The position numbers and the translations under genes were made by a program. A DNA stretch of 62,934 nt, the filler included, from Sluysia triapertura (taxonomy: Eukaryota), in assembly GCA_046118255.1 (NCBI GenBank). It is 5 parts of 5 records of this genome, joined end to end, with 100 filler letters (N's around TTAATTAATTAA, not from the genome) between each part and the next. Parts side by side here need not be neighbours in the genome. Positions count along the whole stretch, not along the records: positions 12,668 to 25,191 come from JBJNIA010101545.1; 4 more parts are not named here. The stretch is one strand, 5' to 3'. Shown piece after piece: positions 3,130 to 62,722 of this stretch. Under the pieces are notes generated by a model. It saw only the letters and a list, made by a program, of their open reading frames with translations, had not been told where the DNA came from and ran no database searches. The number at the start of each line of letters is the position of its first letter. The stretch's first letter is position 1.

Positions 3130-3679
3130 CGTACGATAATTATTATTATCATTAGTAATATAAACGTAACATTATTTTTTAAATCTTGAGATCATATAAT
3201 CATCTACAGTAAAATATAATTTTTAAAATCTTAAATCGTTAAATCAACTAACTGAGAAAACAGTTAGTTTATGCAACTTAATTATGGGTTATTTATTCAT
3301 TTTATTTTATTTATTAATTGCTTCACTAATTTATATAGCTTTAAATTATATTAAACTATTACATTCAATTGATTTCAAAAAACTAGAATTTAATTCTAGG
3401 AAGTAAAATCTTTTCAACGATTCCGTATAAAGGAATCCATGCAAAATTAATAACTAATTTCTATTCTTTATTTAATTTTGAATTTGTAACTTAAATTATT
3501 AAGATTTTTAACGTAGCAAAGATATAAAATTCACCTCCAGATAGAAGAACTTTATTGACATATTTTCTCCAAAAACTTATCTTGCAAAAATGCAACAGCT
3601 GGTCCTAGCAGGTAAGTCCAATGCGTTGGTGAACTCACATATTTAACTTACTTTATTCTATTTGCATACTTTTCTCACA
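3130..3679 (+). mobile_element. Solo LTR related to the LTR of retroelement 1
   Basis: 3370-3679 aligns by eye to the reverse complement of 24575-24850 (CTAGAATTTAATTCTAG; CCTAGCAGGTAAGT; CGTTGGTG.ACTCACAT; TTTTCTCACA end). Left boundary approximate. Confidence 0.75.
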
Positions 3680-4462
3680 TTACCAAACTTGTCTGGATTT
3701 AATATTTCCTAATTAATTTTCTAATTAAAAAGTGAATTTATCTTTTGATCACTTAAATTGTAATTTAAATTGATAAGTGATTTCTAAATATATGTATTCT
3801 TAAATTAATTTTTCCATCTACATTTCCATCTTCTTCGACATTATCTACATTTTCGTACGTATTTTCTTTGTCTTCATTGCTTATTTTGTATGTCTAAAAA
3901 ATTTAAAGAAAATAACAATTCTTATTTTTATTTCCATTTTTGGCCTTGCTCACCATCATCGAAAAATCAATTTAATAAAAAAATCAAAATTACTTTTATA
4001 TATTTTTGATTTCTGAAATATTTTCTTTGTCGACGACTTTCCAAAAATTAAATTATTTCCTATATGTTTATATGCATTCATTTCTTCTGCCACTTCACAC
4101 TAAATAATAATTATATTGAGTACTATTAAATGATAAAATAGCATCTTTCCATAATACATGATTTTGTAACTTTCAACTTAACAAATAATAATTTATCATT
4201 AAGATCAAGATAATCAGTTTCTGATGTTTATATTTTAAATTATGTATCACCATCATCATTATTTGTTCTGTTGATGAATAAATCTCTTCGAAAGCTGTAT
4301 TTTGTAAAACAAAAATATATAATTTAGTTTTTACACAACTCATTATTTATTATTAAATATGGTTCGTTCATTTTTCGTTTATAGTTTTAACAACTTTTAC
4401 ATGTTTCTTACTCGTTTCTTACTCAAAAGTAATATAAATAAAAATATATTTGTATGATGCAG

Positions 4463-8039: not shown

Positions 8040-9130
8040 TTTAAAATCCCTTAAAAACAGGTAAAATAGTAATGATAATAATAATCACGTTAACAATATT
8101 AAAATAATAAATGAAAATAACAAAATTATAAAATGTCCCTAACAAGAGCATGGATCTTCTTAATGCTGCAAATCTTTTTGTGTCTTGTGAATGTGTTGTA
8201 AAAATTAAAAATTTGTATTTACACTCTTTCATCATCCAAAAATCCCAAGTCTCACAATCAATCACTCTTTCACATAAATTATTCAAACCTCTTTGAGAAT
8301 CAAACCGACAATAACAACTTCTACAATTATATCGTACAATTATATCAAACTTCATTAGGTACAAAACATAGAAATTTGATTTATTATCAACCATCATTTC
8401 CTTTTACTCTACTCAATCTATTTTACTTAAATTACTTCTCGCATTAAAATAACAATCAATAATATTATTAACATACATAAAAATAAAGAAACTAATTTCA
8501 CTTTTTAGAATTTAATTGATTTTCGATTTTTCAAACCCAGTTTTCTAATGAAAAATGTTCTAATGAAATTGTTCTTATTCTCAAACAAACTATTTACAAA
8601 CATTTCGAACTCATTTATAGATTCTCCTCGTTCGTAGCAATCGTCGCATATTCCATTGATTACATTTGCATCACTCTACGCATAAAAAATTCAACATTCC
8701 ATAAGTAAAAATTAATTAAAATTTGCCTTTGCTCAGTATTAAGGCTTTCCTTGTCATGAACTCGGTCAAACCATACGTTCATCGAAAAATGTTTTCAAAA
8801 CAAGTACATACAGTTTCAAATTTAACGTGGCATTCCGCATTCACAAGTTATTCACAAAAACGTAATTTTTCTTAATTAAGTTAATTACGATTTTAATTAA
8901 TTAATCTATTTTTAGATTTAATTTTATTTTATGTTTCAAGGTTTTATTGAGGTTCCAAGGTTATTTAGTAATTTATAAGGTACTCAGGAGGCTCTAGATG
9001 TTGTCACCTTCACATCTTTGATTCCTTTTCTACTTCTTTATGTTAATTATTACCATATTAAACTTATCTTTATTATTTTAAACAAAAATTTTATTTTTCA
9101 AACATTTTAAAGATTTTGTCCACTTTTATA
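8040..9130 (+). repeat. Copy of 2-kb solo-LTR-like family X
   Basis: Shares CATGGATCTTC, TTCTTAATTAAGTTAATTA.GATTTTAATTAAT and TGATTCCTTTT.TACTT blocks with 36705-38160 and 51326-53325. Confidence 0.8.
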
Positions 9131-9162
9131 CTATTAATCTTAATAATTGTTTTCACTTAGTT

Positions 9163-9237
9163 TTTACAGGTACGCCATTAGTAAGTTGCATACTGTAAAC
9201 GGAGTCAGAATAATAATTTAATTTGCTGCGAGTTAGA
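9163..9237 (+). repeat. About 75-bp dispersed repeat (possible DNA transposon terminus), copy 1
   Basis: TTTTTACAGGTACGCCATTAGTAAGT...ATACTGTAAACGGA.TCAGAATAATAATTTA also occurs at 33837-33912. Confidence 0.75.
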
Positions 9238-12199: not shown

Positions 12200-12567
12200 T
12201 TCATCTAAAAATATGAGATTTTCATCAACAATTCTTGAAATTTCATTTAAATAAATTTTTCTTTGATTTATCCTTTCAATGTATTTCTTTCAATTGGTAC
12301 CAATGTCAATTTTTTCTACTGAATCCCTTTTTTTAGTTTTTTTACAAATAGTAGGTTGGGAAATATTTAAATTTTCTAAACCAATGACCTTTTCTTTGAT
12401 TTCATTTTGTGTGATTGAATTGTCCATTGAAACCATGTTATATATGGCTTGATTGCATTATTGATCGCATTTTTGCGTAGACATGTAATTTTTCTTTTTT
12501 CGTTAGAAGTTGTAAAAATCTTTCCACTTTCATGATCTTTTATGATTCTCCAGACTGCCTGGCGACT
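12200..12567 (-). pseudogene. IS630/Tc1-superfamily transposase fragment (HTH to first catalytic D)
   Basis: Manual translation with frameshifts: SRQAVWRIIK...ITQNEIKEK...ISQPTICK..KKKGFSRKKLTLVPIERN...ENLIFLDE; truncated by the gap. Confidence 0.75.
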
Positions 12568-12667
12568 NNNNNNNNNNNNNNNNNNNNNNNNNNNNNNNNN
12601 NNNNNNNNNNNTTAATTAATTAANNNNNNNNNNNNNNNNNNNNNNNNNNNNNNNNNNNNNNNNNNNN
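12568..12667. other. Assembly gap/linker N44-TTAATTAATTAA-N44
   Basis: Identical 100-nt linker with six-frame stops occurs four times. Confidence 0.98.
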
Positions 12668-13028
12668 CAGTATACTAACTATTGAAATTATTAAGGTTTA
12701 AACTGATCAAGATAATAATAGTGGGTTTAATATTTAACAAGTTTTAAAGACGCAACAGTATACTTAATGATTTTATGTCGTATTTATCCTTAGTAGTTGA
12801 CTTACTTAATTGTATCTCCAGAAATTTATTTATGATCGGAATCCTTAAATCATATGTCCTAATGTTAGGCCAGAAATCTAATGTATCTCCCGTTTCAATT
12901 TATCGTAAAATAAATAGCACTTGGTAGGTTGGTAAATGAAATAATTTGATACTTGAATATTGTATAAGTCATAGGCAATATTAATTGTATTACTTACTAA
13001 CGGATTTTCTATATGAACAATATCACCA

Positions 13029-13469
13029 TCATAATGATAAATAGTCGGTGGTTATTGATGTTTTTAGAGTTGTAGAAAATCCTCGAAAAGCAAGTGGTTT
13101 AGTCAGAATTTTGTGTTTCTGTGCCAATATCAATTTTGAGTTATGTTTCATTTTATATTCGAATTCCAAAATGAGTGTAACTTGAAATAATTGATACTCA
13201 AATAAGTCTTCACATGATATTATCCAGTAAAAAACGTGTCGATTAATGTGAAAGTCGTTTTGACACCAACTTTGAAGACAAAATTTCATAGTAACATTAA
13301 CTATTTTTGCACTGCTTAGATTGATAGTAGCATAAATATCCTTTTGACCTGATTCTAGAGTAATTCGAGGTTGGTTATTCTTTGATATCCTATCATATGA
13401 GTATTTTTTGGTAACGCTTGCATATCCGAAATATATGTTAAACAGATACAAGCCACTAAAGTAGATCAT
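13029..13469 (-). CDS. Putative secreted/membrane accessory protein, unknown function
   Basis: 146 aa ORF with hydrophobic signal-like N-terminus (MIYFSGLYLFNIYFGYA), several Cys and N-glycosylation sequons; overlaps the stop of the upstream ORF. Confidence 0.4.
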   Translation of the reverse strand: MIYFSGLYLFNIYFGYASVTKKYSYDRISKNNQPRITLESGQKDIYATINLSSAKIVNVTMKFCLQSWCQNDFHINRHVFYWIISCEDLFEYQLFQVTLILEFEYKMKHNSKLILAQKHKILTKPLAFRGFSTTLKTSITTDYLSL

Positions 13470-14085
13470 AAATTCGTTAGTTGCATTCCGTTAAACGCAA
13501 ATGTATAATATCCTTCTATATCATTTTCGTATGTAAGGGAAGGTGATAGTAGTATCCCTAGTGGTGGATTAAAGTCAAATTGATGTGATGTAGTATAATG
13601 ATCATCAATGTCCTTATGAGATGATATATTCGAAAAAGAACATTTATTCATGATGAATTTTGCGATTAAAACAAATATAAAAATTAATGCAATTACTATC
13701 ATTATCGTTAATATGTAATCATTTCTAAACATGTCAAATATTGTCGGGGTGTTTTTTGTACCTCTTAAAGCAAAATGTAAACGTTCGATTTTCTTAGATG
13801 ACAAATAAATTCGTGCTATGATGTATCGTTCCTCATTAGCTAGAAAGTCCGAATATATTGTGTATGGATTTACTAAAGTATTCATACGATATTCGGAAAT
13901 AATCCAAGTGCTAAAATTGATTCGAGCCGGACGTAGACATGATAATTGAATTCGAATATTACTATACAATAACTTAACTTTCAAATCTGCATCTTAGTTA
14001 TAAAATTCGAAACACTCAAATTTGTAATGTTGACTGTTACATTGTGCAACTGAAATTATCGTTAACAATACTATGGGTAATAAAT
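13466..14085 (-). pseudogene. Putative type I membrane accessory protein (paralog 2)
   Basis: Signal-like LLPIVLLTIISVAQC upstream (one in-frame stop), then CLRPARINFSTW...EERYII...LHFALRG domain and TM segment YILTIMIVIALIFIFVLIAKF. Confidence 0.55.
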
Positions 14086-14906
14086 TATGTTTAATCTTAT
14101 GAGTTCTCGAAAGATTACTATATGCAATAACATTCACTATAGTCCCTATATTACAGCGAATAATGTCAGCATAATAAATAATCCATTTACTAGTTTTTCG
14201 GTCTGTTTTTCTAATGATACTTTCCTAAATGCAGCTGTATTAAATGTTGAATTATACAGTTCGTTTTTAAATCTAATTTCCCATTGTTAAGTGAATATTA
14301 ATGTGTCATATGACTGAATGACTGAATTGATTACCCACATTGATTTTATTGACTTTTATTACAAATTGATCACACATATGGTATTGATTTTATTTTTTGA
14401 TTTTTATTACAAAATTTTATGATTTTTGAAATAATTATTTATTCAAATTTTATCTAGGTAAGACTTTATTATATTGTTTATAATTTTTGCATGTGGTGTT
14501 GACATGGTACAAGATTCTGAATGAAAATAATACAGATAAAAAAATGAAATGATACATGAAAATATATAAAACAATACGTTAGTTTAATTTTTATATTAAA
14601 TTTTTTTAATTTTAGTTACAATATCTTATATGAATTTAGGAATAAAAAGAATTCTTAACTATGATTTTTCTTAATAAATGGATTAATTGTTTTGATCTTT
14701 TTGTATAATCCTGCTCTTTTATAGAGGCGTCTTATTTGACGATGACGTCTATTATGCTTCTGGGACTTTGACAACCCAGAAGGATAGTTAACAGGTGGTA
14801 TCTCTATTAAATGTTTTTTTACGTTTTTCCTTAAGGTATTATGGGTACGTGATTACTACTTCTTGCATTTCAATGCAGTGATCCAGTAAATATGATGGAA
14901 TTTTCT

Positions 14907-15116
14907 CTAAAGTATATAAATGTTGGAATTTCCCCTTATAAAAATGTGGATTTCCTCTACAAGTGTCCTACACAATGGGCAGTTCATATATTCTGTAGTA
15001 GTAAAATGGAAAAGATTGATTATACATTTGAAATGAAATTTATGAGAACAAGGATGTGCTTTTATGTAATGTTTATGTATAGAGTGTTGGCATATTGGAC
15101 ATCGATGGAAATACAT
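14907..15116 (-). CDS. RING-H2 (C3H2C3) zinc finger protein, putative E3 ubiquitin ligase
   Basis: CPIC-x13-CSHKFHFKC-x14-CPLC; polypyrimidine acceptor TTTTATCTTCTTTTTCAG lies 3 nt before the ATG. Confidence 0.85.
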   Translation of the reverse strand: MYFHRCPICQHSIHKHYIKAHPCSHKFHFKCIINLFHFTTTEYMNCPLCRTLVEEIHIFIRGNSNIYIL

Positions 15117-15389
15117 TGTCTGAAAAAGAAGATAAAAACATAATAAGGTAATAATATTTTAAAGTTAATTAGTTAATTAATTAACATAATAAATTATGAT
15201 CCTAATTTATGTACACGCTAAAAACTACGAGAGATATTAAACATTATTTATGTAAAGTTAGGTGACCGGTTGGACAGAAATAAAACCGTCAACATCGATC
15301 ACTCGTAACTTTTCTATATATATTGTTTAATCCTATACTTTAATTGTATGTGTCAATCTACGAGGTATTCCTATATACTTTTTATGGCT

Positions 15390-15725
15390 TCAGTCGATTC
15401 TTTAATTCCCTGTGTAGCGAAGTGAAGCTGCTTAATAATTTTAGCCTGATGTTGGATGAATATTATTATATATCTATCTTCTGATAATAAATAGTCTTTA
15501 CAAATTGTTACTGGGTATTCCGTGTTTGGTAAGACATGTATTTGTAATTCTCATATACTAAAATTGAGTCTTGCTGGGTTGATACATATATAATGTGCCT
15601 TAATATTCTTAGTTACCATAATTTGAACTTCTGTGTCGAAATTATAAAAATCCAAGTATTATGATTTGTAAATTCTCTGTGATATCCGTAATTGATATCA
15701 ATGTTAGTAAGGTGAGTAGCATCAT
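15390..15725 (-). pseudogene. Disrupted paralog 1 of the membrane accessory protein
   Basis: Manual translation MMLLTLLTLISIT...CINPARLNFSI*...NTEYPVTICKDYLLSEDRYIIIFIQHQAKIIKQLHFATQG aligns with ORF 13466-13984. Confidence 0.7.
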
Positions 15726-15814
15726 ACCCTATTATTAAATCTTATAATCCTGTTACAAGTAATAGTAATAAATAGTGAACAGCATGTAGATTATGATAAA
15801 GATTAGAAGCGCAA

Positions 15815-16312
15815 TTATAAAACATTTTGTATTTCTAACTTTTTCTTACTTACATCCTTACTTATTTTCTTACTTATATTCTTATTTAATTCGGTAGTAG
15901 TATTCGTGACTCGGTTCGTTGTAGTGGGTAATATTGTACTTACTGTTTTATTTATATACTTTTTCTTAAAAATGTTCATGAAATCTATTGTTACTGACGC
16001 CATTATCGTGGTGTATTGAATAGAGTGCTCACATTTGAAAATATCATGTATCACAGAAGGTTTCTTTATTATTAATGGCTCAAAATATATGCAATACATA
16101 TCAAAATTATAATCAGGAATCTCGTTTTTGTTATCAATTTCAGCGGTCCAAAAACTAATGAATGTATTTGAAGGAAAGAGGTTTTGTTTAATATTGGTGT
16201 AGCTTGTTAAATTTACTGAATAATTCGTCATCATAGTTGTCAATTGAAATAGAAATAGCATAAAAGTTATTATATAAAGATATTTATTATTTGCGATTGT
16301 TCTTATAAACAT
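15815..16312 (-). CDS. Putative membrane-anchored/secreted glycoprotein, unknown function
   Basis: 165 aa; hydrophobic N-terminal segment, multiple NxS/T sequons, Thr-rich stalk; hydrophobic TM-like stretch just downstream of the stop. Confidence 0.45.
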   Translation of the reverse strand: MFIRTIANNKYLYIITFMLFLFQLTTMMTNYSVNLTSYTNIKQNLFPSNTFISFWTAEIDNKNEIPDYNFDMYCIYFEPLIIKKPSVIHDIFKCEHSIQYTTIMASVTIDFMNIFKKKYINKTVSTILPTTTNRVTNTTTELNKNISKKISKDVSKKKLEIQNVL

Positions 16313-16529
16313 TATACTGCTATCACTATTGCTAATACTAATACTATTATCAGTATTATTATTATCATTATTATTATCTGATCCGATACCTGAAGTTCAA
16401 GAAACCGTGGTATCCCACCAATCGAGATTTTCCTAATTTGGCGTTGGTGATGGTGGTAATACTTGATTTAATGGAGCAATTTGATAATTTTGCGGTTGTA
16501 CTGCGGTACTGTTCTTGGCATCGGAGGTA

Positions 16530-16865
16530 AAACTAATTGTGCCTAGAGATATTTTAAGAAATCCTAATCTTCCGTGTATTACTATATTTTCTAATTTACT
16601 TAATGCATCCATTCCTAATATAATATCTTATGGGCATCTTTCCCAAACTAGTATTGTTTTAAATAGATCTACATCTAAGATTGTTAGTTGACATTGTAAT
16701 AGAATATGTGAGCCGTCTAGTGCAAATAATTGTATTCCTGCTTGTTTTAACATTAACTTCTAAAGCATTCAGTACATTATAATTAATAATAGTATTATTC
16801 GAACCTGTATCTATGACTGCTAGTACCCATCTCTGATTGAACTTAATAATCTGAACTAGATGGTT
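16530..16865 (-). pseudogene. Retropepsin-type aspartic protease (frameshifted), 3' of integrase
   Basis: Manual translation IKFNQRWVLAVIDTGSNNTII (DTG at about 16803-16811) ... CP*DIILGMDALSKL (about 16590-16630): both the catalytic and the C-terminal ILG.D motifs are present. Confidence 0.88.
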
Positions 16866-17950
16866 TGTATGTTAAAAGAAGAAGTTACACTTTTTGTAAC
16901 TTTCCTATCTCTTAAATTATATTCATTATTATGTGCCAATTTGCATCGATTTACATGCACGACAAAAGTTTCTGCATTCACATAATTAGGTTTATTTATA
17001 TATAAATTAGTGGAAGTTGTTTTCATCACTTCATAAAGTCCTTTAAATGGTTTGTGTAGTTTTGGAGAATATCCTGGTTTCGCTATTGGATAGTCTACCA
17101 ATACTTTATCTGATTTGCTTTTTGTCATAATTATCTTTATAAATTTCCTGAGTGTAATGTATTTGTAATCCAGCGCGTTTCCATATCTTGTAAATTCTCT
17201 CTCATAATAATAACATATTCAGGAGTTTCCATGTATTGAGATGAAGGTGGAATCCAGTCTAAATCTATTGGCATGTTTGAGTGTCTGCCGTACATAAGAT
17301 AGAATGGTGTAAAATTAGTAGCAGGATGTACTGAGCTTCCATACGCAAATAAGCATGGTGATATATATAAATTTCAATCTTTCTGTCTTTCGTTTACATA
17401 TGATTGTAGCATATTTATTAATATTCTATTAAATCTTTTTACCAATCCATCGGTCTGTGGCTGATACGATGATGTATATATTTTTAAAATCTTAAATATA
17501 TTTGCAACAGATATTATCGCATCACTAGTAAAATTGGTTCCCTGGTCAGTTAATAATTTTTTTGGAGTTGCGTATCTATATATATTACTTTTTCTACTAA
17601 TATTTGAGCTACAGTTTAAGCTTTTTGATTAGGTATTGGATATGTTTCTGGTCATTTTGTTAAATAATCAGCGAATATTATTATATATTTATTTCCATTT
17701 ATTGTTTCTGGCAATGGTCCCATTATATCCATTGCGGTGAATTCCGTTTAAAATAGTGGTATTGGCATAGGTCTTAATGATACAACATATAGCGCAATTC
17801 TTACACCATTCTTTAATATCTTCTTCCATTCTATCCCAATAATATTTATTTTTAATTCTTGATAATGTTTTTCTTGTTGATAAGTGTCCGCCTAATTATC
17901 CATCATGGTAGTGAATTAATAGTGGTGTTATTAAAGATTTTGGTACAATT
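16856..17950 (-). pseudogene. Integrase (HHCC, DDE core, GPY/F-like C-terminus)
   Basis: HYHDG*LGGHL...WCKNCAIC; AMDIMGPLP; LLTDQGTNF; YQPQTDGLV; TPFYLMYGR; KPFKGLYEV; stops and frameshifts present. Confidence 0.93.
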
Positions 17951-19550
17951 GTTTTCCATTCATCCTTTGAATCTCTAAAGTGTAATATACCATCTGTTAT
18001 TGATAACTTTTTAGCTTGATCTTCATTTAATAATCCCCTCACCATTGCTTCAAAAGCATATGACATTTCTTCATCTTCTCTTTGAAGTTTTATTATTTCT
18101 TTTGGCTCTTCAGATTTTCCCGAAGTTGGCATTATTTGAATAAAATTTATATTTTCTTTTTCATCATGATTTGTTAATTTTATATTTCCATCTTCATCAG
18201 TATTTGTTAATCTTGACATACAATCCGCTCCATTGTTCATTGAAAGTGGTTTATATATTATTTGTAAATCAAATTCTGCTAGCTTTGTGAACAATCTATT
18301 TAATCTACTAACTTCATCTCTATGATTGTATAAATATGTTAATGGTTTATGATCCGTATATAAAAGCACTTTCCGTCCCAATAAATAGTGTCTGAATAAT
18401 TTGCGTGCATAGACAATTGCTAAACATTCTTTTTTAATTGTTGAATAATTTAATTCAGCTTTATTTAGTCTCCTACTTGTATATGCTATTTTTTATATGC
18501 TAAATTTTATATGCTAAATTTTCTTTATTCCTTTGTCCCAGAATCGCTCCTATTGCAAAGTTACTAGCATCTGTTGTTAGTTTAAATGGTTTATTCATAT
18601 CTGGAAATATTAATACTGGTGCGGTTGTTAATCTTTTCTTTAATTCCATAAACGCTTTTGTTTGTTCTTCAGTCCATTTAAATGTTACATTCTTTTGTGT
18701 TAGCATCCTTAGTGGTCTAGCTATCTTCGCAAAATCTTTCACAAATCTTCTATAATAATTGGCTAATCCTAGAAAACTTTTAACTTTCTTAACATTATCT
18801 GGTGGTGGATATTTAACAACTTTTTCTATACTTTTAGGATTTGGTTTTATATCTGTGTGTGAAACTTTGTGTCCTAAAAAGTCAACTTGTTCTTCTGCCC
18901 ATACACATTTAGTCGGTTTAATCTTCAGTCTTGCTACTTCAAGTCTTTTGAGTGTATTATCTATATCTACAACGGAGTATCAAAATCCTTAGAAAAAATT
19001 ATTATGTCATCAATGTAAACCATTACATTCTTACAACCGGACAGTACGAAATTCATACATCTTTGAAATGTTGCCAGTGCACCTGTTAATCCAAACGGCA
19101 TTTTTTCACATTCATATAATTCATCTCCCACGAAAATGCTGTTTTTTGTTTATCTTTTTCGGCTATCTCGATTTGCCAATAACCACTCTGCAAATATTTA
19201 GCATTTTCTAGTTTATCTAACATTTAATCAATTCTTGGTAATGGAAATACATCTTTTCTTGTAATTTTGTTCAATTCTCTGAAGTCGATACAAAATCTCA
19301 TAGCTGTATCTTTTTTCTTAACTAGTAATACTGGTGACGAGAATGGAGAAAAGCTTGGTATAATTACTCCGGCCTTTTTCATTGTATCTATTTGATTTTT
19401 CATCTCTTGTTGATTGCATAATGGAATTCTGTAAGGCTTCTTTCTAATTACTTTATCTTCTATTAATGGAATTTCATGTTTCTTTATGACGGAATTTCCA
19501 ATATCATATTTATTTCTTGCAATTGCCCAAGGATATCTGTACATAATTTT
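17950..19550 (-). pseudogene. Reverse transcriptase and RNase H (Ty3/gypsy type)
   Basis: [48 protein letters not shown] (about 19003-19020), TTDASNFAIGAIL, LYTDHKPL, ADCMSR. Confidence 0.95.
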
Positions 19551-21035
19551 ATATAATGTCGTGCCAAGCTGCTTGAATATCTTCATTAGAATAGATTCCT
19601 GATTTTGGAATGTTCTTTGTAGTAGAAAATTTTAATTTTGTTTTTAATTCTGTTAAACCTATAATTTCCCGTGTTTTAACTTGACTTCGATGTGGTAGAG
19701 ATATCCAAAGATTATCATCGATTTTATATTCTGGAGCCATTACATTAGAGCAGTGTAGTGTTTTCGGTTTAAGTCTATTAGCTGGAATAATAATTCTCGT
19801 AACTGGTTCTAAATAAGTATTTATATATTACCGGTAATTCATTAGTACATTCGCTTTCTTGTCTAATTTGTACTTTCACTTCTCCCATCAACCTACCAAA
19901 TACTCCTTCTTCTGGGTTAGTTATTGCTACAGCTAATTTAGTTCTCAATATTTCTTTATTTAATTGACACTCTATCGCTATCATGGCTTGATAAACTTTT
20001 TCTAGTGACATCAGTCCTAAATGACAATAAAATTCAATTTTGTTATTAAAATACGTGTTTAATTGTAGATTCTTTGTATCTAATCCTTTTTTAACTTGTA
20101 ATATTGTCTTTTCTGATAGATATATTCCTTGATAGTTTGTTTCTATGATTTCTTGTCCACATCGAACTACTAGTTTTTTTGATAAAAAATTTTTCCATCT
20201 TCTTTCTTATTTGCCATTAGAATTGTTGGAGTTTCAATTTCATGAAGTCTTTTCCTTTCAGGTATATCTAAATTATCTTTATAAATTTGCTTTTTATTTA
20301 TTTCTTCTACTGCTAATTCATCTTCATTTTGATACATAAATCCCGAAATTAAATTAAACTTAATTTGTTTTAAGAATATTAATGAGCAGTGATATTTTTC
20401 CAATTCATATATTAGTATTGATTCACCAGAGTCACAACTTGTTTGATCGCTCCTGCAAAATGGTCTAGACATCATAGTACCTTTTTCTAAATTAAAACTT
20501 TCGTTAAAACATTTTAAACTTACTACATGTGTTTCTTGAGCTACTACGTTGTGATAAATCTTTCCTTCATATTCTATTGATCCTCTTTCGCAAGTACTGT
20601 CGATTAATACATCACCAGATGTTCTAATTTTGTAAATTATTTTCTCGTTATTTTTAATTCTTAATTTATCTCCTTTGTTTAAGCTTATGTATCCAGTTCC
20701 AAATGTATCATGACAATTGTTCGGCGATATTTTAAAGGTTTTAATATGTTCGATATATCGATAATTGAAGAGTGACTGTGATGTCCACAATACCATATTA
20801 CTGCAGATCTTTTAACTAAACATTCTCTAACTAATGTCGTAATAGATTTCCTTCTTGATAAACATTTAATACTTTCATATCTTTTATTTTGACTCTATTT
20901 GGTCTTGATTCAGGAAAATCTTCGGTATCTTATAAAGAGAACTTTCTTCCAATTTGGGGTTGGCTACAATCAAAAGCTTTTAGCATTAGTTTTATTAAAT
21001 CCGAATAATGCCAATAAAACAATTAAAAATAACAT
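19550..21035 (-). pseudogene. env-like viral fusion glycoprotein, chuvirus/Jingchuvirales-like; C-terminally truncated
   Basis: Signal peptide MLFLIVLLALFGF, KAFDC..., [65 protein letters not shown]: motif series I recall from chuviral-type glycoproteins. Confidence 0.75.
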
Positions 21036-21080
21036 ATTATTTATTGAAGTTACAAATTGAATGATCCATTTGTACTTCCC

Positions 21081-21126
<46 letters not shown>
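21081..21126. repeat. (TTA)n microsatellite
   Basis: Perfect run; explains the poly-Leu ORF 21057-21293. Confidence 0.95.
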
Positions 21127-21127
<1 letters not shown>

Positions 21128-21223
21128 TAGTCGGGTTATCGTGTTAAGTGGTTCATTTAAAATATTCTTTAAGTCCTTTATAATATTTTTCCATCCTCCT
21201 AAGTTTTCAATTAGAGTACCTAA

Positions 21224-23100
21224 TTACTTATCAGTAAAGTTTATAACCTTGTCTATTTTTTCTTTAGTTAAGAGTGTCGCTTTATTACATTGAAATATTA
21301 TGTAAGCCATTATTATTTTAAGTCTATCTCTATTGATTCCAGCATTAATTTGTTTGTTTAATATATTTTTATATTGACCATTATCTATAAAGTCACTTAA
21401 ATCCGTATTCTTATATTTTTCTTCCATAACTTTAATTATCTTGATTAATGCAGCTTTGTATTCCTTTAATTCAGGTAAAAGTGTTTTATACTTATCAAAG
21501 TTAGAAAATTTATTAGATAATAATGCGTAAATTATAGTTTTCGTACTTAAGGTTTATTCTATATTCTTGTAAGTAATTTTGGTTAAATCAATAGGTTTTC
21601 TATGTATTGGGGTTGGTATTACTGTTTCATCATCATTATCCTTAATTTTTCTAGGTCTACCTGGTTTTCTTTTAAAAGTGTTTGTTTCTTTATCTTCAGT
21701 TTCAATATGTGGATTTTTATTTAAATCTCTTACGTAATCGGGTTTATCTTCAGTATAATCATCATTGTCATTGATTATATCTATAATTTTACTTTCATTA
21801 ACTTTATTATTATTTTTATCATAATTGTCTTCCATTAATTCTCGTAGTAATGAACGTGGAGTTCTATCTAAATCAACATCGTTGTCATCATTTATTAATT
21901 CATCCAATTTTCTTAGATCATCGGAAGGCTTAGTGTGCGCCATTATAACTGCGGAAGTCATTGATGCTTCCTCATGGTTTCCATTCATTGATGGATAACC
22001 GTAAACATTTATATAATCATTAAGTAATAGTTTTCTGTCATAAAAATATAAATCAACATCATTAATATTAGAGCCATTTGACTTGAGTAATTCTATAATA
22101 TCTTTAGTAATTGAAGTAACGGGAAGTTCCATATAATATTCAAAGAGTTATTAATAATTATACTTATTCTCATTAGTTCTTTAGGGATATGTTTTCTTTC
22201 TTTTTGTCCTAATTTTCTTAATAATTTTCTTGCCTTAATCTTATATAAACTATCTTCTTTACCTAAAATAGCTAATACTAATTTTATATCATGTCCATTT
22301 TGTATACTTAATTCCGATTTTAATAAATCATTTAGATTTTCATTTAAGTCTTTGCCATGTGTTATATTAGATAAAAATTCTTCAACTTTTTGATTAACTT
22401 CTTTAGTTTCTGGGGTATTTATTTTATCATTAGCAGTTATTATTATTGATTCCGTCTCTTCTATTTCCATATCTTCTGTTGTATTTCTTCATAATCTGTT
22501 TTATTAAATATATTTTCTACTTCTTGGTCATCACTAAGTTCATTATTTGGTTGTTTTTCTTCTTGATTTGATTCTTCTTCGGTTGAACTTGATTCTATAT
22601 TTGATTTTTCCTCTATTGGAATCGATTCTGTATTTGATTCTTCTTCTATTTCATCATTACTTTCTACTGACTTATCTAAATTTGGTTTCTTCATCTTTCC
22701 TTCCCATTTGTCAATTAATTCTTGAATACTTTTATCTTCATTTGATATTACTTCTTTTATCTATTTTATTTGTTCATACTTTCCTCTGAAGGTTGTTCTA
22801 ATAATTCTCGAATTTTAACCTGAATTGGTTGGATGGTTAATCTATTTTCTTCTTTTTCTCGTTGTTCTCTTCTTTGTTTATCTTTTTGAAATTTTAAATA
22901 TCTATCATACATATAACTCATAAAAATTTCGTTTTCTTGTTTATTTTTAAATCTATTTTTTTCACAATCCAATCCAGTGATATAGAATACTCGTAACATT
23001 GCATTCTTTTCTTCATCTGAAATTAATTTAAGATATTTATCATCTTCTTCATCACTACTCGTCTCCCTTCTTCTTGGTTGTCTTCTGCTTCTGTTATCTT
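21224..23100 (-). pseudogene. Long acidic/charged ORF2 or gag extension with AT-hook
   Basis: Contiguous frameshifted ORFs 22766-22999, 22461-22694, 22093-22470, 21554-22132 and 21224-21427; E/D/K-rich; KRKPGRPRK at about 21650-21675. Confidence 0.6.
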
Positions 23101-24091
23101 CTGATTAACTTCCTACAATCTCTTGCATAATGTCCTTTCTTATTACAGTTGTCACAGATTAATTCTCCATCGATATTTGTTTGAGTCTTATTATTATTTT
23201 CATATCTTGTTGGACTTTTACTTCTATTCCTATTGAAACTAGAACTTGGTGGCCATCTCGGTGCTGGTCTCTGTTCATAATTAGAAGCAGCATAATTACT
23301 TGCTCTATTATTTTGGAATCCTCTATTATTATTATTTCCTTTATAATTGTTTGAGCTACCCCTGTAATTGTTTGAATTACCTCAAAAATTTCTGTAATTA
23401 GCATTGCCTCTATAATTATTTGAATTTCAATTATTATTATTGCCTCTACGTGGGCTATTATGTCGGTCCTGACTGTAGTTACCATCATTATATTCTTCAT
23501 AATTTCGTGAGTTAGATTTATTATCATTATAATTATTTCTTGTTAATTTCGGGATTTTGTCTCCCTTTTCTTCATTGTCGCTTATGTAATCAATATTATT
23601 CTTATTTTTTTATGCATAATTGAGAGTTCAATGCTCCTTAATATTTTAATTACTTCTTTAAAAGGTTTTCCTTCTATTAAGTTAACATAAGTTATTAATT
23701 CAGGTCGTAATCCAGTTTTTAATTTATCTTTCAATGTTAATTCTCTGTTACCATCTGGAATTTTGGCTCTAGCAACAAGGCTTTTAAGAGCGCAAGCACA
23801 TTCATATACAGATTCATTAGGTTTTTGTACTTTAGTATTGAGCATTTTTGCATAATATTTACCCATATCATCAAGGGCTATCTCTTCTGTAAATGTATTA
23901 ACGAATTCGTTCAATGTTTGTTTATTATTATCACTTATTTCTTTTATTTTCTCGGCTTCATTCCAGCCGTTAGCTTCTGCTATACTTTCGTATTCAAGTA
24001 AGAAATCTCAGAGATCTTCTTCTGCTCCGTCAACTTTTTTCATTTCAAGTAAAGACATTATTGGATGCATTTCTCTGTCTAATTGTGCCAT
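23100..24091 (-). pseudogene. gag (capsid-like plus CCHC zinc knuckle)
   Basis: MAQLD...DFLLEYESIAEANGW; KVQKPNESVYE...LKTGLRPEL; CDNCNKKGHYARDC at about 23115-23157. Confidence 0.9.
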
Positions 24092-24548
24092 ATATTCTTT
24101 AAATTCATTAGGTAAAACCATATAATTCCTTAATTTTGATCTGTAATCTTCTGAAAAAACAATTTGCTTATCTATTTTTCTTAAAGTTTACTAAATCTAT
24201 CAATAATCAACTTAGGGAGTAATAATTTTACATAAATTTATCTTAGTCTTAATACAATTATTCCAAAAATGCTTAATTCTTAATTTTAATTCTCAAATTA
24301 ATCTCTACTTAAATAATAATCCTTAAATTCTTCTTAACTACTTAATTCTTATATGAGTTATTGCAAAATTCCTTTAAATTAGTTAATTCGCCTTAAATTC
24401 TTCTTAATTCCTCTAAAAATCTTATTTCTTTCTTATATTATTTCGATACTGGTCCTCAAATTCAATTCTATAGCAAAATTCTTCTTAATCAGAATTCCTA
24501 AAAATCTTATATCTTATACTTATTTATGTTATTTATATTGTTGCAATT

Positions 24549-24564
24549 GCTCGTCTGAGCACCA
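24549..24564 (-). promoter_or_regulatory. Putative primer binding site TGGTGCTCAGACGAGC
   Basis: TGG-starting GC-rich tract 10 nt downstream of the LTR end (...CTCACA) and upstream of gag. Confidence 0.7.
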
Positions 24565-24574
24565 GTTTATTCTA

Positions 24575-25191
24575 TGTGAGAAAAGTGAAGCAAATAGAAT
24601 AGAATATAAGTATGTGAGTCCACCAACGTGCTGTACTTACCTGCTAGGGCCAGACGTTGGATTTCTTATAAGTGTCAAAGAAAAATTTAGTTTTTTCGTT
24701 AATGTCTCTTGTCTGAAGGTAGATATTTTAAAGATTTTAATTTGAGTTATTAAATAATTTGAGTTAGTTATATATTTTACGAATGATTTCCTTGTATGGA
24801 ATCAATAAATGAAAATTTACTTTCTAGAATTAAATTCTAGATTTTTTGAAAACTGTAAATACTGGTATTTTAATAGATTCTATAACTATTCAAGTTGAAA
24901 AGATCTTAATACGAAAAATTCCTTTATTATGCACAAAAATGTAAAAATTATACAAATACAGTTGATAATAATGATAAAAAAATTTACTTTAATTAACTAT
25001 TGTTAGTCAATTATCCTTAATTCAAGTTTATACATAATTTATGCATTGCGTTTATGCATTGCGGACAAATGGTTGGTAATTAGTCTATGTAAATATTATA
25101 AAATAATTAATATGATTATGTTGGGGTAAAAGGCCTAAAAAGTTCCAAGTAGTATAATTGAATATATTGAAAATGAAATTGTTAGACGGGG
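24575..25191 (-). repeat. 5' LTR of retroelement 1 (distal end uncertain)
   Basis: Ends in CA next to the PBS; homologous to the solo copy at 3130-3679; contains CAG|GTAAGT at 24635-24643. Confidence 0.75.
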
Positions 25192-25291
25192 NNNNNNNNN
25201 NNNNNNNNNNNNNNNNNNNNNNNNNNNNNNNNNNNTTAATTAATTAANNNNNNNNNNNNNNNNNNNNNNNNNNNNNNNNNNNNNNNNNNNN
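25192..25291. other. Assembly gap/linker
   Basis: N44-TTAATTAATTAA-N44. Confidence 0.98.
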
Positions 25292-36200: not shown

Positions 36201-36704
36201 GAACCATTTTACAAACATTTTGAGTTCACTTATGGATTCTCCTTTTTCATAGCAATCATCTCATATTCCATTCATCTAACTTTCGAATGCGGAATTCTAC
36301 GTTAAATTTGAAACTGTATTTTTTCGAAAATACCTTTCAATGAAGGTATGGTTCGACCAAGTTCATGCAAGGAAAGCCTTAATATTCAGCAAAGTCAAAT
36401 TTTAATTATGGAATGTTGAATTTTTTATACTTAGAATGATGCAAATGTAATGAATTGAATGTAAGATGATTGGTTTGGATGAAGAGAATCTCTAGAAGTA
36501 AGTTTTAATTGTCAGACATTTTCACAAAGAAATTGGGTGTGAAAATTGAAAATCAATTAGATTCTGAAAACTAAAATTATATTTTTTATGTATGTTAACA
36601 ATAATAATGATTATTATATTAATGTGAGAATTAATTTAAGTAAAAGTCGATTGAGTAGAATAAGAGAAAATGACAGCTGATTATAAATCAAATTTTTGTG
36701 TTTT
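36201..36704 (-). repeat. Inverted partial copy of family X
   Basis: Reverse complement of 8360-8840 (e.g. GTTCATG.CAAGGAAAGCCTTAATA). Confidence 0.8.
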
Positions 36705-38160
36705 TGTGCGTCTTTATAATTATTAGTAACAGTAAATCAATATCAGTTTAATTTGCTTAAATAGAAGCGCAATAATTTTAATATTCAGTATATAAAGTAT
36801 GAACTATCACAAATTTTCTAATTTTACTAAGGATATTTATTCAACCCAAAAAATTAAGCTCTTTATTCAAATTAATAACAATAACTCAATAATATAATAA
36901 TTACAAAATCAAAAGGAAGTCATTATTATGAGTTTCTGCTTTTTCTAAATGTCTAAATTTCAAAATTAACAATAATATTTATGACAATATTAAGAGCCAG
37001 AGGTAACGCAACCTAAGAAAAAATTAACTATTATCACGCTTATCAAATATAAATTTCCAAAAACAATACAAAAACAAAAACCGTTTCAATAAAACCGCCC
37101 CAAAAATAAATTTTTCATTATTAAAATATTAAAATTATATAATAAATTCAAAATTTACTTAAAGCATGGATCTTCATCATTTTCATTACAAATTGTTCTT
37201 TTTAAGTAAAATTTTTAAGTGTTCCTGTTCATATTTTTAATCATCCATTCATTCCCAAATATAGAATTAAACATTCTCTCACTGCAACATTCTTTGAAAA
37301 TTAATCCGACAATAATAACTTTGACAGCTGCATGGTACAGATTGTCAAACTTAAGAAACTGATTTATGATTATCTCTTATTTTTATTATTCTAAAACAAA
37401 CCACTCAAATTTGACTTTGCTCAATATTAAGGCTTTCTTTGCATGAACTTTGTCAAACCATACCTACATCGAAAGGTCTTTTCAAAAGAAATACATATAC
37501 ATTTTCAAATACATATAGAGCATTCAAAAGTTATTCACAAAAGCGTACTTTTTCTTAATTAAGTTAATTAAGATTTTAATTAATTAATCTACTTTTAGAC
37601 TTAATCTTATTTTATGTTTAAAGGTTTTTATTGAGGTTCTAAAGTTATTTAGTAATTTATAAGGCATTCGGGAGGCCCTAGATATTTTCACTTTCACCTC
37701 TCTGATTCCTTTTTCTACTTTTTCATTTTAATTATTACCATACTTAATTTATTCTTAATACCAATAACAATAATTTTAATTCTCAAATATTTTTAAAGAT
37801 TTTAAATACTTTATAAGGTGATTTGAAGATCTCAGATGCTTATAAAGGTTTCAAGAATACTTAATGGTTCGTAAAGTCTTGGATGATCTCAAAGTTCACA
37901 TATTGAAAAGTGTCCCAATACCTTTAAAGGTCTATTAGTGTATTTTAAACTTCATAAGGTCTCAATCTCTTATATAGGTGTTTGGAATTCTAAGGTATTC
38001 TTTAGCTGTTAACATTATTATAGATGTTTTCATTTTCATGATTCTTATTCCAAAAATGTTTACAATGTTCAATCCATCACTTTGAATCAGTTCTCCACTC
38101 ACTTTATATTTCTATATGTTTATCACTCATCTCCTGATCCACAGGTGAGCAATTCCAACA
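36705..38160 (+). mobile_element. Family X solo-LTR-like copy
   Basis: Starts TGTGCGTC (homologous to the TGTTGCATC start at 51326), ends CAG|GTGAGCAATTCCAACA; shared core blocks. Confidence 0.7.
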
Positions 38161-39977: not shown

Positions 39978-40397
39978 TTAGTCTTTTTGTTGTTTATGTG
40001 AAGATGTTGGATCAAAAAAATAAGTTTTTATTAACAAGTTTTTAAAAAATATACCCGCAATACCATGAACTTCTTCGCGTTTAATTTCCACATCGTCTGT
40101 TGGTACAGTAGTATGAGTAAGTCGTACTGGATCATAAACCGCTTGTGAAATGTGTACTCGACCAGGCTGAACTGACGGTTCCATTGTATTAGCAATTATG
40201 ACATCGTTTGGGTAAGCATCAATTCTGAATCGTACTTTACCGATAATGGCACGATTAACACGACCAGTATGAATACTGACACGCATATTAACATTTGGTA
40301 ACTTGTGAAGCAAGAATGACATGTTAAATGCTTTATTGTACTGTATTTTTGATCTAACATTTAGCAGAGCAATTTCACCTTTAAAACTGGTTTCCAT
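39978..40397 (-). pseudogene. Class III adenylyl/guanylyl cyclase catalytic domain fragment
   Basis: NMRVSIHTGRV..AIIG..RFRIDAYPNDVIIANTMEPSVQPGRVHISQ; N-terminal half missing. Confidence 0.85.
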
Positions 40398-40399
40398 AT

Positions 40400-54499: not shown

Positions 54500-57341
54500 A
54501 GCTCTAACAGTTATAACCCAGCCACTGTCTGACCAAAAGTTAAAAATGTTCCCCATATCATTTTCATTTCATATCGTTTTCCAAATAACCCGCTGATAAT
54601 AACCTTTCATAATTTGGTTTGTCGCCTGCATCTCCTATGGAAGTTTCTACTATTTCAGTCAAAATTCTGTTATAAATATTTTCTAGCATCATCCATAGCT
54701 TTTTTATCATATAGATTACTCTTCATTAAATCCTGAATGCAATCAAAGTGTAGGTTGTTTTGTAAATTTGTAATTTCTAGATTTCTCGGTGGCGATTTGG
54801 GTATCAATGATGGAACGACGACCCATGTTGTCTCTGATAATTTATATGCTGGAGCAAATAAAGGTGAACATTTAATTTTAAATGCTTTTGATATAACCAG
54901 TAGTAATAATCTTGTAACCTGTTCCATATAAATAACTTCATTTTTATAAATAACTGGTTATTATGAGTACATTCGTTAGTACAATTAAGATAAACATAAA
55001 CTTTTTTACAAGCGAAAGTTTGTAATAATTCATCCATTAGTCTACTAAAAATTATTTTACCTAATTGAATCTGGAGTGGCCATACTAAGATTAGTCACAA
55101 TCAGTGTCATTTTTGTATGTATTATTTCACAGTTTAGTTTACAATCATTAATAATTATTTCTCTATAAAGATCTTCTATTTGCCTTAATTGATGATGATA
55201 TGAAAAGTCCGCTTTATTGTTAAAATAAATTAACATCCTTATGCAACAAATGAAAATTAGACTGCTTTCCTTTACTTTTAATTACAAATATTTTATCATA
55301 ATTAATAATGTAAACTAACGGACCGCATTTTTTAATCTTACATTATCTTATTAACCTAATCTCAATTAACACAACTTGTGTATTTGTTTCTACTAATGTT
55401 TCTTCTTTATATTTTAAATTTTTACATTATTATCATTATTCATAATGTTGATGTTGATATTATTTTTGTTTTGAATGTATTTGTTGAATCACACTGAATA
55501 TATTTATTGATTTTTTATAGTATGAAATATTTATTTGTTGATTTTCAATATTAATTCGGTTTGGATTTATAATTGGAAAATTATAATTTTATGTGAGTAA
55601 TTTATTTTTATTATTAACAGAAATTATAAAATTAAAAAATTATTGTTAAACTGAATTTATAAAATCAGAGAATTAATAGAAATTTTAAAATTAAAATATA
55701 TTAAACAGTATCTAATTGCAGAATTTATAAAAATTAAAATTTCAATAATAATTTGTTTTAAAGAACCGTCCAAGGTCAAACTTAAATTAATATATAAAGA
55801 TGACATTTTCGTATAAAACTACTTAACTTTTAATTTGAACAAAACAATTTTTAATTGTATCTTTCAAAAAATTCGTGGAGCTGACCATTGGACGTTACTT
55901 ATAGAGAAATAACATTGCAATTAATTATTCGTTAGTTTGTTTTTGATAAGTTAGTACCTTTAAGTGTGCACCGTAAAATCAATGTAAATTATCTATATAC
56001 ATTTGCAGAACCATTTACAATTTCTTTCGTAAAATAATTACTAAAATTGCTTTTTTATATTATTGCATGATCTTTCAGTATTTTAATATTTACCTTTTGC
56101 GTTATATTATAAACTTTCGTATTAAAGTTTTATTGTTAATAACGAATTTCATTATCAGTTCTGTTTAAAATAATTGTAAGTAAATTTTACAATTTTAAAA
56201 TATTAAAATCTGTACTTATAGCATATTTCACCGATATTTATCGGAAAGTGTAAATTCACTTAATATAAATCCTATTTAAAAGGATTTTCGTAAAATACCA
56301 ATTATTAAATAACCTTTTCTCAGATTAATTTTAGATGAAGATTAATTTACATTTAATTTAAATATAATTAATTTAAGATTAATAATATTTAAAGGATTCT
56401 TGTAAAATCACAGTTTATTAACCCTCATTAAGAGAGATAGTCAATTATTCCATTAAACTTTAATGAAATACATTAACTTACTAAGAACCAAGGAATAAAT
56501 TTGACTACGAAGCTTATAAATCTAATAAACAAATTTATTGACCTCCTATAGTTATCTTGTTTTAAGATACGTTGGTGAACTCACATTCACATCTTTATTC
56601 TGAGAAAAATAAAATAAAAACCTCGCAATAACATCATGAGCAGATGAAAATATTTTTCCTTTAATTGTATCAATAATGACTGTTTTAAGGTAAACTAGAC
56701 TACATTCACGATTTCCAAATCAAAAACAATAGTATATTTTCCACCGAAACTTGTTTTTAGTTCTAATTTGCAAAATGATCTTTCTAGCATAGCTTTTGTA
56801 TTCGGGTCAAATGCTACTTCAGTATTCTTAATTTCAGTAGTGTAAGTATCAATAACTAATGCTTTTCGAATCTTATTATGACAAAATTTTCCACATTCGC
56901 GGGTATCTTCATACAACAAACTTCCTACTACAAATATTTCTTCTTATACTGTAATACCTGGTTTTGCTTTCAGAATTATTTTAGAGTCCATTTTACTTCA
57001 TGAGTGTGAAAAGCATTATAACAATTTTTTAGTGTAATTTCAAGATATTCTTCTATTATAGACTATTTAATCAATGAAATATGGCTATTATATCAACACC
57101 ATCTAATATATCTCTTTCTAGAGACTGCACATTCATATGCTTTAATATAAATATATCCTCTTTCTTAATAAATATGATAAATCTGATCGTATTGTTTAAT
57201 AAATTTATTTGGATATGCATCAGGACATTTTTCTACATCCATTAATGAAAATTTTGCTCCGAGTGTTGTATTTTCACAATCAAATGCCTTAATAGATTGT
57301 GCAACAGGCAATACTAAAATTGTCATAAAATGTGCCAACAT
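54500..57341 (-). pseudogene. Chuvirus-like fusion glycoprotein of element 2 (interrupted at 55446-56633)
   Basis: MLAHFMTILVLPVAQSIKAFDCENTTLGAKFSLMDVEKCP; ECAVSRKRYIRWC*YNSHIS; DCKLNCEII; CKKVYVYLNCTNEC; KCSPLFAPAYKLSETTW; SNLYDKKAMDDAR; WGTFLTFGQTVAG. Confidence 0.78.
55446..56633 (+). mobile_element. Solo-LTR-like insertion in the glycoprotein gene
   Basis: TGTTG...ATAACA termini; flanks TCATAA/TCATGA; contains CGTTGGTGAACTCACAT, also found in the solo LTR at about 3624. Confidence 0.6.
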
Positions 57342-60239: not shown

Positions 60240-60730
60240 TATGTTGTAATATTTTTATGATGTAAAAATTTTAAGTTTTTCCTTTTATACTTTCTCATCA
60301 TCCAATCAATCCTAAGTTTCGCAATCAACACTGTCTCACACAAATCATCAAAACCTATTTCAGAATTAGACCGACAACTACATGTTATGGTCTGTAAAAC
60401 TTTATTAGATACAAAACACAAAAAATGGATTTACGATTATATTCTACTCTGCTCGATCAATTTTTACTTAAATTACTTCCCACATCAAAATAACAATCAC
60501 CAATATTACTACCATGCATAAAAATAATGAATTTAATTTTAGTTTTTATAATTCAATTGAGTTTTGATTTTTCTCAAGCTTCCGTAAGGTCGCAATACCC
60601 TACATATGTCTTTGAAACTTCAAAGTATTCCTCAGTTTTCAACATAATTCTAACTTTAACATTAATTACAATGCTCAATCTATCACTTCATATCAATTAA
60701 TTCCTCACTTTATGGTTCCAGATAACTCTT
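60240..60730 (+). repeat. Internally deleted family X copy
   Basis: Aligns to 8190-8530 (TCATCATCCAA, CACA.AAAT.AT.AAACCT, ACCGACAA). Confidence 0.7.
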
Positions 60731-62245: not shown

Positions 62246-62722
62246 ATGAATTTATCTCATTTTGACAAGAATTGTATTGAATCTTTGAAAAATTTCTATA
62301 TTTGGCCAATTACGGGAATTAAATCAGTTATTCAAAATGATCAGTGTATGATAACAAACAGTAATTCATTTAAATTAAACCTATACGGTTATAAAATGGG
62401 GCTGCAAGCAAAATTTGAAAATGACTTTATGGGTATATATTTAATCTTATTACCAAGTAAATATGATAAATTATTAATGTGGCCGTTTGATAAAGAGATT
62501 AAAGTATCGCTTTTGAATCAAGTGAAACCAAATGAAAACGAAGAAGTCATTATATCTCCAAAATCAATATCAAATGGTAAACATCATTGGAGAAAACCGT
62601 CAAAAATCGATGATCATAAAGGATATGGTATAAAAAATGCGTTTCCATTAAGTTTGTTAGAAAAAAATTCGAATTTCTTACGAAATGATATGATCTACTT
62701 AAAAGTTGAAATAAACGAATAA
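62246..62722 (+). CDS. TRAF-type MATH domain protein (possibly terminal exon)
   Basis: YIWPITG...GYKMGL...MGIYLILLPSKYDKLLMWPF...VSLLNQ...GYG....FLRNDMIYLKVEI*; intact frame ending at the domain end, as in TRAFs. Confidence 0.9.
   Translation: MNLSHFDKNCIESLKNFYIWPITGIKSVIQNDQCMITNSNSFKLNLYGYKMGLQAKFENDFMGIYLILLPSKYDKLLMWPFDKEIKVSLLNQVKPNENEEVIISPKSISNGKHHWRKPSKIDDHKGYGIKNAFPLSLLEKNSNFLRNDMIYLKVEINE

Follow-up and report, generated by a model that had tools for sequence, protein, structure and literature searches.

A broken RING-H2/basic-tail gene as probable cargo 3' of integrase in a flatworm GAG-ENV-POL element

Does a short RING-H2 reading frame inside a retroelement region of the flatworm Sluysia triapertura belong to the retroelement, and, if so, what might it do there? 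The frame lies in a stretch of 62,934 nucleotides assembled from five records of one genome (hereafter, the window). The original prediction had read it as an intact, stand-alone protein of 69 amino acids. On balance, we favor a different reading: that what looks like a whole frame is only the first half of a broken gene for ~150 residues, with a RING-H2 domain and a basic tail; that this gene is cargo of a flatworm GAG-ENV-POL element of the Ty3/gypsy type; and that its working copies would encode a ligase directed against host silencing or restriction.

The region around the frame holds the parts of an env-bearing element. A gag with a CCHC knuckle, a gB-type env, and the order RT, RNase H, integrase are found on one strand (Table 1). 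The piece that carries them (12668-25191) ends at N gaps on both sides (12568-12667 and 25192-25291), and the coding span is ~11.5 kb, with 4.2 kb of extra genes 3' of integrase. The env was recognized by Pfam family PF24664 (Monjiviricetes_fusion) in four pieces, covering profile positions 57-487 of 653 (E 8e-12 to 8e-6). The spacer between gag and env matched no Pfam family at E 0.1 when three frames were read with X at stops. A search with the window RT returned five matches (54-62% over half of the query), with no flatworm RT among them.

The element may have an unusual protease arrangement. A protease-like segment (gag-asp_proteas, E 4.6e-4, under the curated cut-off) follows integrase on the minus strand at 16436-16871 rather than preceding RT. 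No protease was found between env and RT; env ends at profile position 487 and adjoins RT. A deletion at this junction may have removed the canonical protease from the window copy. In Ty3/gypsy, either a moved protease or an additional one would be out of the ordinary.

Table 1. Features of the element piece, in window coordinates.
Feature	Position	Strand	Evidence
Putative 5' LTR, 3' part, cut by N gap 25192-25291	24575..25191	-	
Candidate splice donor CAG/GTAAGT in LTR-like repeat, intron start 24640	24635..24643	-	
Primer-binding-site-like stretch starting TGG, 10 nt past LTR-like end	24550..24564	-	
gag, broken; CCHC knuckle near 23156-23109	23097..24187	-	Pfam zf-CCHC E 1.8e-5; ORF pieces
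Acidic low-complexity coding spacer between gag and env, broken	21050..23104	-	
env, class III/gB-like fusion glycoprotein, broken, C-terminal part missing	19552..20894	-	
pol: RT, RNase H, integrase, broken	16859..19478	-	Pfam RVT_1, RT_RNaseH, Integrase_H2C2, rve
Aspartic-protease-like segment 3' of integrase, broken	16436..16871	-	DTG, ILGMD motifs in translation
Accessory membrane/secreted-type ORF A, broken; one hydrophobic run	15374..16396	-	
Splice acceptor: pyrimidine tract + CAG	15120..15139	-	Top acceptor score
RING gene 5' half (the 69-aa ORF): RING-H2 domain and start of beta-hairpin	14907..15116	-	
RING gene 3' part: Arg/Lys-rich tail ending ..NPFIKKNHS, then stop	14655..14852	-	Homologue-only profile iE 5.3e-6
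Accessory ORF B, broken: signal-like run, ectodomain, transmembrane run, further units; reaches N gap at 12667	12744..14224	-	

The frame encodes a RING-H2 domain. It runs on the minus strand from an ATG at 15116 to a stop at 14909-14907 (69 codons), with the ligand spacing C-x2-C...C-x-H-x2-H-x2-C...C-x2-C and eight ligands in the order C,C,C,H,H,C,C,C, that is, C3H2C3. Pfam zf-RING_2 matches it at E 7.3e-8 (33 bits against a cut-off of 27.3). The pattern occurs in one stop-free segment of the whole window and in 0 of 200 shuffles built from 2-base blocks. The C3H2C3 motif was correctly predicted, as was a strong splice acceptor 3 nt before the ATG: its AG lies at 15121-15120, followed by ACA and then ATG, and 15 of the 17 upstream bases are pyrimidines. 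Among 1296 minus-strand YAG sites, none scores higher, and only two (the acceptor itself and one other) reach this score.

The gene extends beyond the 69-codon frame. A HMMER scan with the RING ORF retrieved 84 proteins at E <=0.001, mostly generic RINGs; 20 sequences of this set were read, and 91 proteins were aligned to the window by tblastn. In two proteins, P0003 (157 aa) and P0012 (141 aa), the RING end is followed by a basic tail that matches window 14852-14655. The tblastn alignments extend from 15116 to 14658 for P0003 (E 1.8e-24) and from 15104 to 14664 for P0012 (E 2.0e-15), each crossing in-frame stops at 14909-14907 and 14858-14853. A three-row profile search found 4 of 113 candidates at E 1e-4, two of them query rows and two new: P0092 (154 aa) and P0093, which is short at its N-terminus. 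These four homologues span 116-157 aa at pairwise identities of 34-77%. Homologues begin at a Met shortly before the RING. All eight zinc ligands are kept in the three full-length ones (P0003, P0012, and P0092), and at 29-40% identity homologues retain ligands, tail, and length.

The tail is recognizable in its own right. When restricted to the four homologues, a profile detects the window tail by itself (14813-14661, iE 5.3e-6) and no second RING/tail copy in the window, the next best match having iE 0.88. The last 45 residues contain 14 K/R and 0 D/E in the window and 14-16 K/R and 0-1 D/E in the four homologues. Outside the RING, conservation is highest in the tail motif Q..RR.RQ.. and NPF.K. 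Among proteins of 37-121 aa, a word-based search with the 69-aa ORF gave no candidate; the true homologues are longer. Alignments of two further proteins, P0019 and P0070, likewise reach the tail region; these are two-RING proteins (327-376 aa), and we excluded them because the RING drives their matches. We show by alignment that a RING-H2/basic-tail family exists, of which the window holds a broken copy. Since homologue alignments run past the ORF stop across in-frame stops and breaks, the 69-aa ORF cannot be called intact; nor does it stand as a protein by itself, being the 5' half of a broken gene of ~150 codons.

Decay of the RING gene matches that of pol. In 8 of 9 runs, frame-aware alignment with three homologues puts breaks near 14938-14956 and 14820-14847; the remaining run gives three in-frame stops in place of breaks. 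Given these placements, the final 10-15 of the 69 codons are probably an out-of-frame run-on. The gene has 2-3 breaks in 459 nt against 2.8 expected at the pol rate (14 breaks over 2320 aligned nt), and the 177-nt RING core has a 0.34 chance of being break-free at that rate. We therefore reject selective preservation of this RING copy. With the gene as decayed as pol, the open frame of 69 codons is, by this reckoning, chance, and the window copy is likely dead, as dead as the element around it.

The RING gene is very probably cargo of the element. ORF A directly follows the protease-like segment. Its last unit (15619-15395) has a paralogue in ORF B (13972-13748), and the two lie on either side of the RING gene (tblastx 37% over 75 aa, E 9e-12; blastp 42% over 52 aa, E 1e-10). 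Paralogous units on both sides imply a single accessory array that includes both flanks; neither ORF matched a Pfam family above cut-off. The RING gene is on the gag-env-pol strand, 250 nt past ORF A, and the first open piece of ORF B follows ~430 nt later, with an AT-rich non-coding spacer on either side. No long inverted or direct repeat brackets it within 14000-15900; on this ground, a nested DNA transposon carrying the gene was rejected. In run X1 (0.31 of the words), 36,541 of 6,252,256 contigs fell on 12668-25191 and 30 of 30 bins were covered. Summed depth was 4,503 and 4,948 in the two RING-gene bins and 7,242-245,879 in the other 28, a sum that represents no copy number and is read solely as many contigs, not one locus. 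Single contigs listed from this run had depths of 17-39, and no listed row lay inside the RING gene. The strand, the paralogous flanks, the lack of bracketing repeats, the pol-like decay, and the many-contig cover all argue for cargo, and the original placement of the frame within the element thus stands.

The same evidence bears on a host origin. A RING core without stops would suit a host gene that still works, be it a single-copy RING gene with this frame as one exon or a domesticated gene with all 69 codons intact. Such a host gene is nonetheless extremely improbable, as the gene is broken downstream of the RING and a core free of breaks is unsurprising at the pol rate. A single-copy host exon, which the original prediction had held to be fatal to its reading, is contradicted by the flanking paralogues, by the many-contig cover, and by the Met just before the RING. 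The 84 hits include no named host orthologue, and the best single-domain hits are generic RINGs at 30-50%.

A passenger gene deserves more weight. The two RING-gene bins have the lowest depth of all 30, so that only one subfamily may carry the gene, or it may have been inserted later. In that case the gene, useless to the element, could have been captured from the host or a DNA virus, or could belong to a separate nested repeat, and would occur in one subfamily; the AT-rich spacers on both sides would agree with this, and large DNA viruses commonly encode short proteins with the RING at the N-terminus. We nevertheless regard a useless passenger as quite improbable. Retention of ligands, tail, and length at 29-40% identity implies long purifying selection, element-type paralogous units flank the gene, an acceptor sits 3 nt before its ATG, and bracketing repeats are lacking.

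Other contigs did not yield a further locus of this kind. Among viral contigs, scans with env (13 stretches) and with the RING alignment (308) confirmed none. Among metagenome contigs, scans with the RING alignment (600) and with env (409) likewise gave none. The RING/tail homologues sit on short contigs (616-2374 nt). Separately, ten run X1 contigs depart from the window sequence at 16550, hinting at subfamilies that differ 3' of the protease-like segment.

Signals for a spliced accessory mRNA are present at both ends. The putative LTR has a diverged, solo-like twin at about 3373-3690 on the plus strand, and the similarity ends at ~24574 with ...TCTCACA. Self-comparison found no 3' LTR partner in the window (the piece is cut at the 12568-12667 gap), and it is for this reason that we only infer its identity as an LTR. 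The end of similarity and the TGG stretch would be as expected for an LTR end and a primer site; no tRNA gene was found in the window. AG/GTAAGT occurs once on the minus strand of the window (24640) and three times on the plus strand, and 14 bases surrounding this donor are identical in the second LTR-like copy. Thus, as sequence signals, a donor in the LTR-like repeat and an acceptor before the ATG are both in place. Joining donor 24640 to acceptor 15120 is predicted to yield a short mRNA in which the RING start is the first ATG encountered downstream. We propose such splicing because 9.5 kb and several long ORFs separate the RING gene from the promoter, and a subgenomic accessory mRNA made in this way seems a reasonably good prediction. 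The predicted start of P0092, ..FIQ/M before the RING, resembles ..FQT/M in the window, which could be a weak hint of an acceptor at the same place. A cluster of AATAAA at 14470-14350 was discounted as evidence, the DNA being too AT-rich.

The acceptor would serve another route equally well. Flatworms trans-splice, and an acceptor just before the ATG suits spliced-leader trans-splicing as much as cis-splicing. The gene would still be element cargo, with its mRNA made by trans-splicing or from an internal promoter. We consider this unlikely; against it, both LTR-like copies preserve a perfect donor, which precedes the primer-binding-site-like stretch.

The family retains the hallmarks of a ubiquitin ligase. 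In P0003 numbering, an Ile between the first two Cys (I8), a Pro after the seventh ligand (P47), and an Arg after the eighth (R50) are invariant in P0003, P0012, and the window, and P47 and R50 in 5 of 5 rows. We take these to be the E2-contact and linchpin Arg positions of RING ligases. Since these E2-binding hallmarks are kept in the family, its unbroken members are likely to be E3 ligases. A model of P0003 has a RING at pLDDT 80-89 over residues 1-60, strands at 55-69, a low-confidence linker, and a helix at 119-144; its mean pLDDT is 66 and its pTM 0.45 from a five-row alignment, and the fold is that of the homologue, not of the window protein. The model superposes on RING E3s at 1.2-2.9 A over ~50 residues in most listed rows. 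The Lys/Arg-rich tail suggests nuclear targeting and nucleic-acid binding.

Fold and profile matches do not identify a relative. Foldseek against the PDB gave a best E of 0.007 and 0 matches at E 0.001. The BFVD search gave 16 matches at E 0.001, with ICP0 proteins first and the RING portion alone covered. The best match of the sequence profile in the PDB was an equine herpesvirus (EHV-1) RING (E 5e-5), among 37 generic RINGs. These viral and PDB matches are generic, and kinship is not implied. The window gene resembles viral RING E3s (the ICP0 family, baculovirus PE38/CG30, iridovirus, and giant-virus proteins) in having a small or N-terminal RING in a selfish genome; however, the matches are RING-limited, with query TM-scores <0.4 and identities of 12-31%, so that the likeness is one of functional analogy. 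The ICP0 RING is C3HC4, whereas the window RING is C3H2C3.

How might a working copy act? Its RING would likely engage an E2~ubiquitin conjugate. The basic helix might then take the protein to the nucleus and to nucleic acid, where host proteins on element RNA or chromatin would be ubiquitinated, a tentative step modeled on the manner of herpesvirus ICP0. The targets could be host silencing or restriction proteins, an assignment about which we are slightly doubtful. The gene may have an anti-silencing role, which is a guess.

The main rival is a role in RNA export like that of CERV or Rev. Here too the gene would be element cargo, but its Arg-rich helix would bind unspliced RNA and its RING would recruit or modify export or splicing factors. 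With a donor and acceptor this strong, unspliced element RNA needs an export route, and CERV is a spliced nuclear Cys-loop protein needed for Cer1 gRNA export (PMC10309623). The tail motif, best conserved outside the RING, could serve such binding. Still, our searches found no sequence or fold link to CERV or Rev, and the predicted E2-binding surface favors ubiquitin transfer. We therefore judge an RNA-handling regulator rather unlikely, and keep to a ligase against host defense as the preferred reading.

The element resembles known flatworm errantiviruses in its core. The gag-env-pol order has been described for errantiviruses of Nematoda, Bryozoa, and Platyhelminthes (PMC13524379). Like S. 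mediterranea errantivirus 1-6, with env class C1a, the window element is gag-env-pol with a gB-type env, and its env motifs EC..KR......CG..SH.S, FC.....SC..GESIL, TP..LM, and CGQ....TNY.GIY.S match the six C1a env rows by eye (PMC13524379); on the strength of these motifs a planarian host is likely. For those six elements, no LTR/PBS call was made within 3 kb of the ORFs (PMC13524379), an absence that fits a long 3' region, although other causes are possible. The annotation in that source comprises gag, env, and pol alone, in contrast to the 4.2 kb of extra genes described here, and "RING" and "accessory" have 0 occurrences in its main text (PMC13524379).

A RING gene in a planarian Gypsy element is already known. 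Burro planarian elements have env between gag and pol and carry apoptosis/ubiquitination cargo, including MATH (PMC6431247). Burro1 is reported to encode B-IAP, with a RING plus BIR, which is anti-apoptotic and has a host-level effect (PMC13465017, citing Lee et al. 2026). The window element is, like Burro1/GYPSM1, a Gypsy element (here of a probable planarian) with a mononegavirus-like env and a ubiquitin-related RING cargo (PMC6431247, PMC13465017). However, unlike B-IAP, the window gene has an N-terminal RING-H2, a basic tail, and no BIR, and lies 3' of pol. No BIR family was found by Pfam in the window pieces or in the four homologues, and identity with B-IAP is rejected on the missing BIR and the other RING type. 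No Pfam hit to MATH, BIR, BCL2, ankyrin, or dUTPase was found in 12668-25191, a negative that is weakened by decay and by the probable env/RT deletion. Burro elements, as far as described, have an internal region of up to 25 kb, with those domains in ORF1 and a protease before RT, while the window element has ~11.5 kb and a protease-like segment after integrase. The claim that a RING is non-standard in Ty3/gypsy is overstated: a RING occurs in Burro1 B-IAP (PMC13465017), though the type found here differs. We conclude that, with RING in planarian Gypsy already known, the RING-H2/basic-tail gene 3' of pol is a different type.

Extra genes in other Gypsy-like elements offer looser parallels. CERV of the C. 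elegans element Cer1 is likewise an accessory Gypsy protein that is spliced, nuclear, and in possession of a Cys-rich site, properties predicted for the protein here (PMC10309623). It differs in being 517 aa long with H/M/G domains and sequence shared with Gag, and has no RING-H2 (PMC10309623); no similarity to the window protein was detected. Bdelloid LTR retrotransposons resemble the window element in carrying family-specific extra ORFs 3' of pol (ORF3), including small membrane proteins, but the ORF3 types are different: GDSL, DEDDy, coiled-coil, and TM (PMC5408684). "RING" and "ubiquitin" occur 0 times in the accessible text of PMC5408684, and "RING" 0 times in that of PMC8532177. Our literature search found no description of such a gene, with RING-H2 and basic tail, placed 3' of pol; an annotation may exist in subscription papers, in Repbase, or in the supplements to Grohme 2018 and Lee 2026, which lay beyond its scope.

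A bolder reading reaches beyond the single gene. Flatworm GAG-ENV-POL errantiviruses might be complex, retrovirus-like elements, with a spliced 3' accessory region, a nuclear RING-H2 ligase for ICP0-like counter-defense against piRNA or chromatin silencing, a membrane-protein array, and a post-integrase protease; we hold this to be doubtful. Dedicated counter-defense genes are known in few LTR retrotransposons, and planarians serve as a model of how PIWI restrains transposons in stem cells. If true, a second, unrelated RING gene, in the unannotated 3' region of another planarian env-bearing family, would mean that ubiquitin ligases have been recruited repeatedly, and it would offer a precise RNA junction and a knock-down target. 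What matters is the RING/tail family rather than this locus, where the copy is in all likelihood a dead relic.

Other parts of the window contain further elements and genes. A second env-RT-RH-IN element with the same order lies on the minus strand at about 50788-57293; it is more decayed, with another repeat inserted at ~51400-53300, and the homologue profile found no RING homologue near it. A dispersed repeat family (72-90% identity, both orientations) occurs at 8194-9236, 36202-38062, 52136-53236, and 60258-60576. Past the gap, short frames at 12290-12567 (-) resemble, by eye, the beginning of a Tc1/IS630-type transposase, but no such Pfam family was found there at E 0.1. A guanylate/adenylate cyclase fragment lies at 39978-40430 (-; E 2e-12) and a MATH-domain ORF at 62231-62722 (+; E 5.5e-18). 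Downstream of the second element, on the same strand and beyond an N gap, a 444-codon open frame at 46833-48167 (-) encodes an mRNA cap guanine-N7 methyltransferase (PF03291, E 3e-16). This ORF could be element cargo, and it carries an exact 69-nt tandem duplication.
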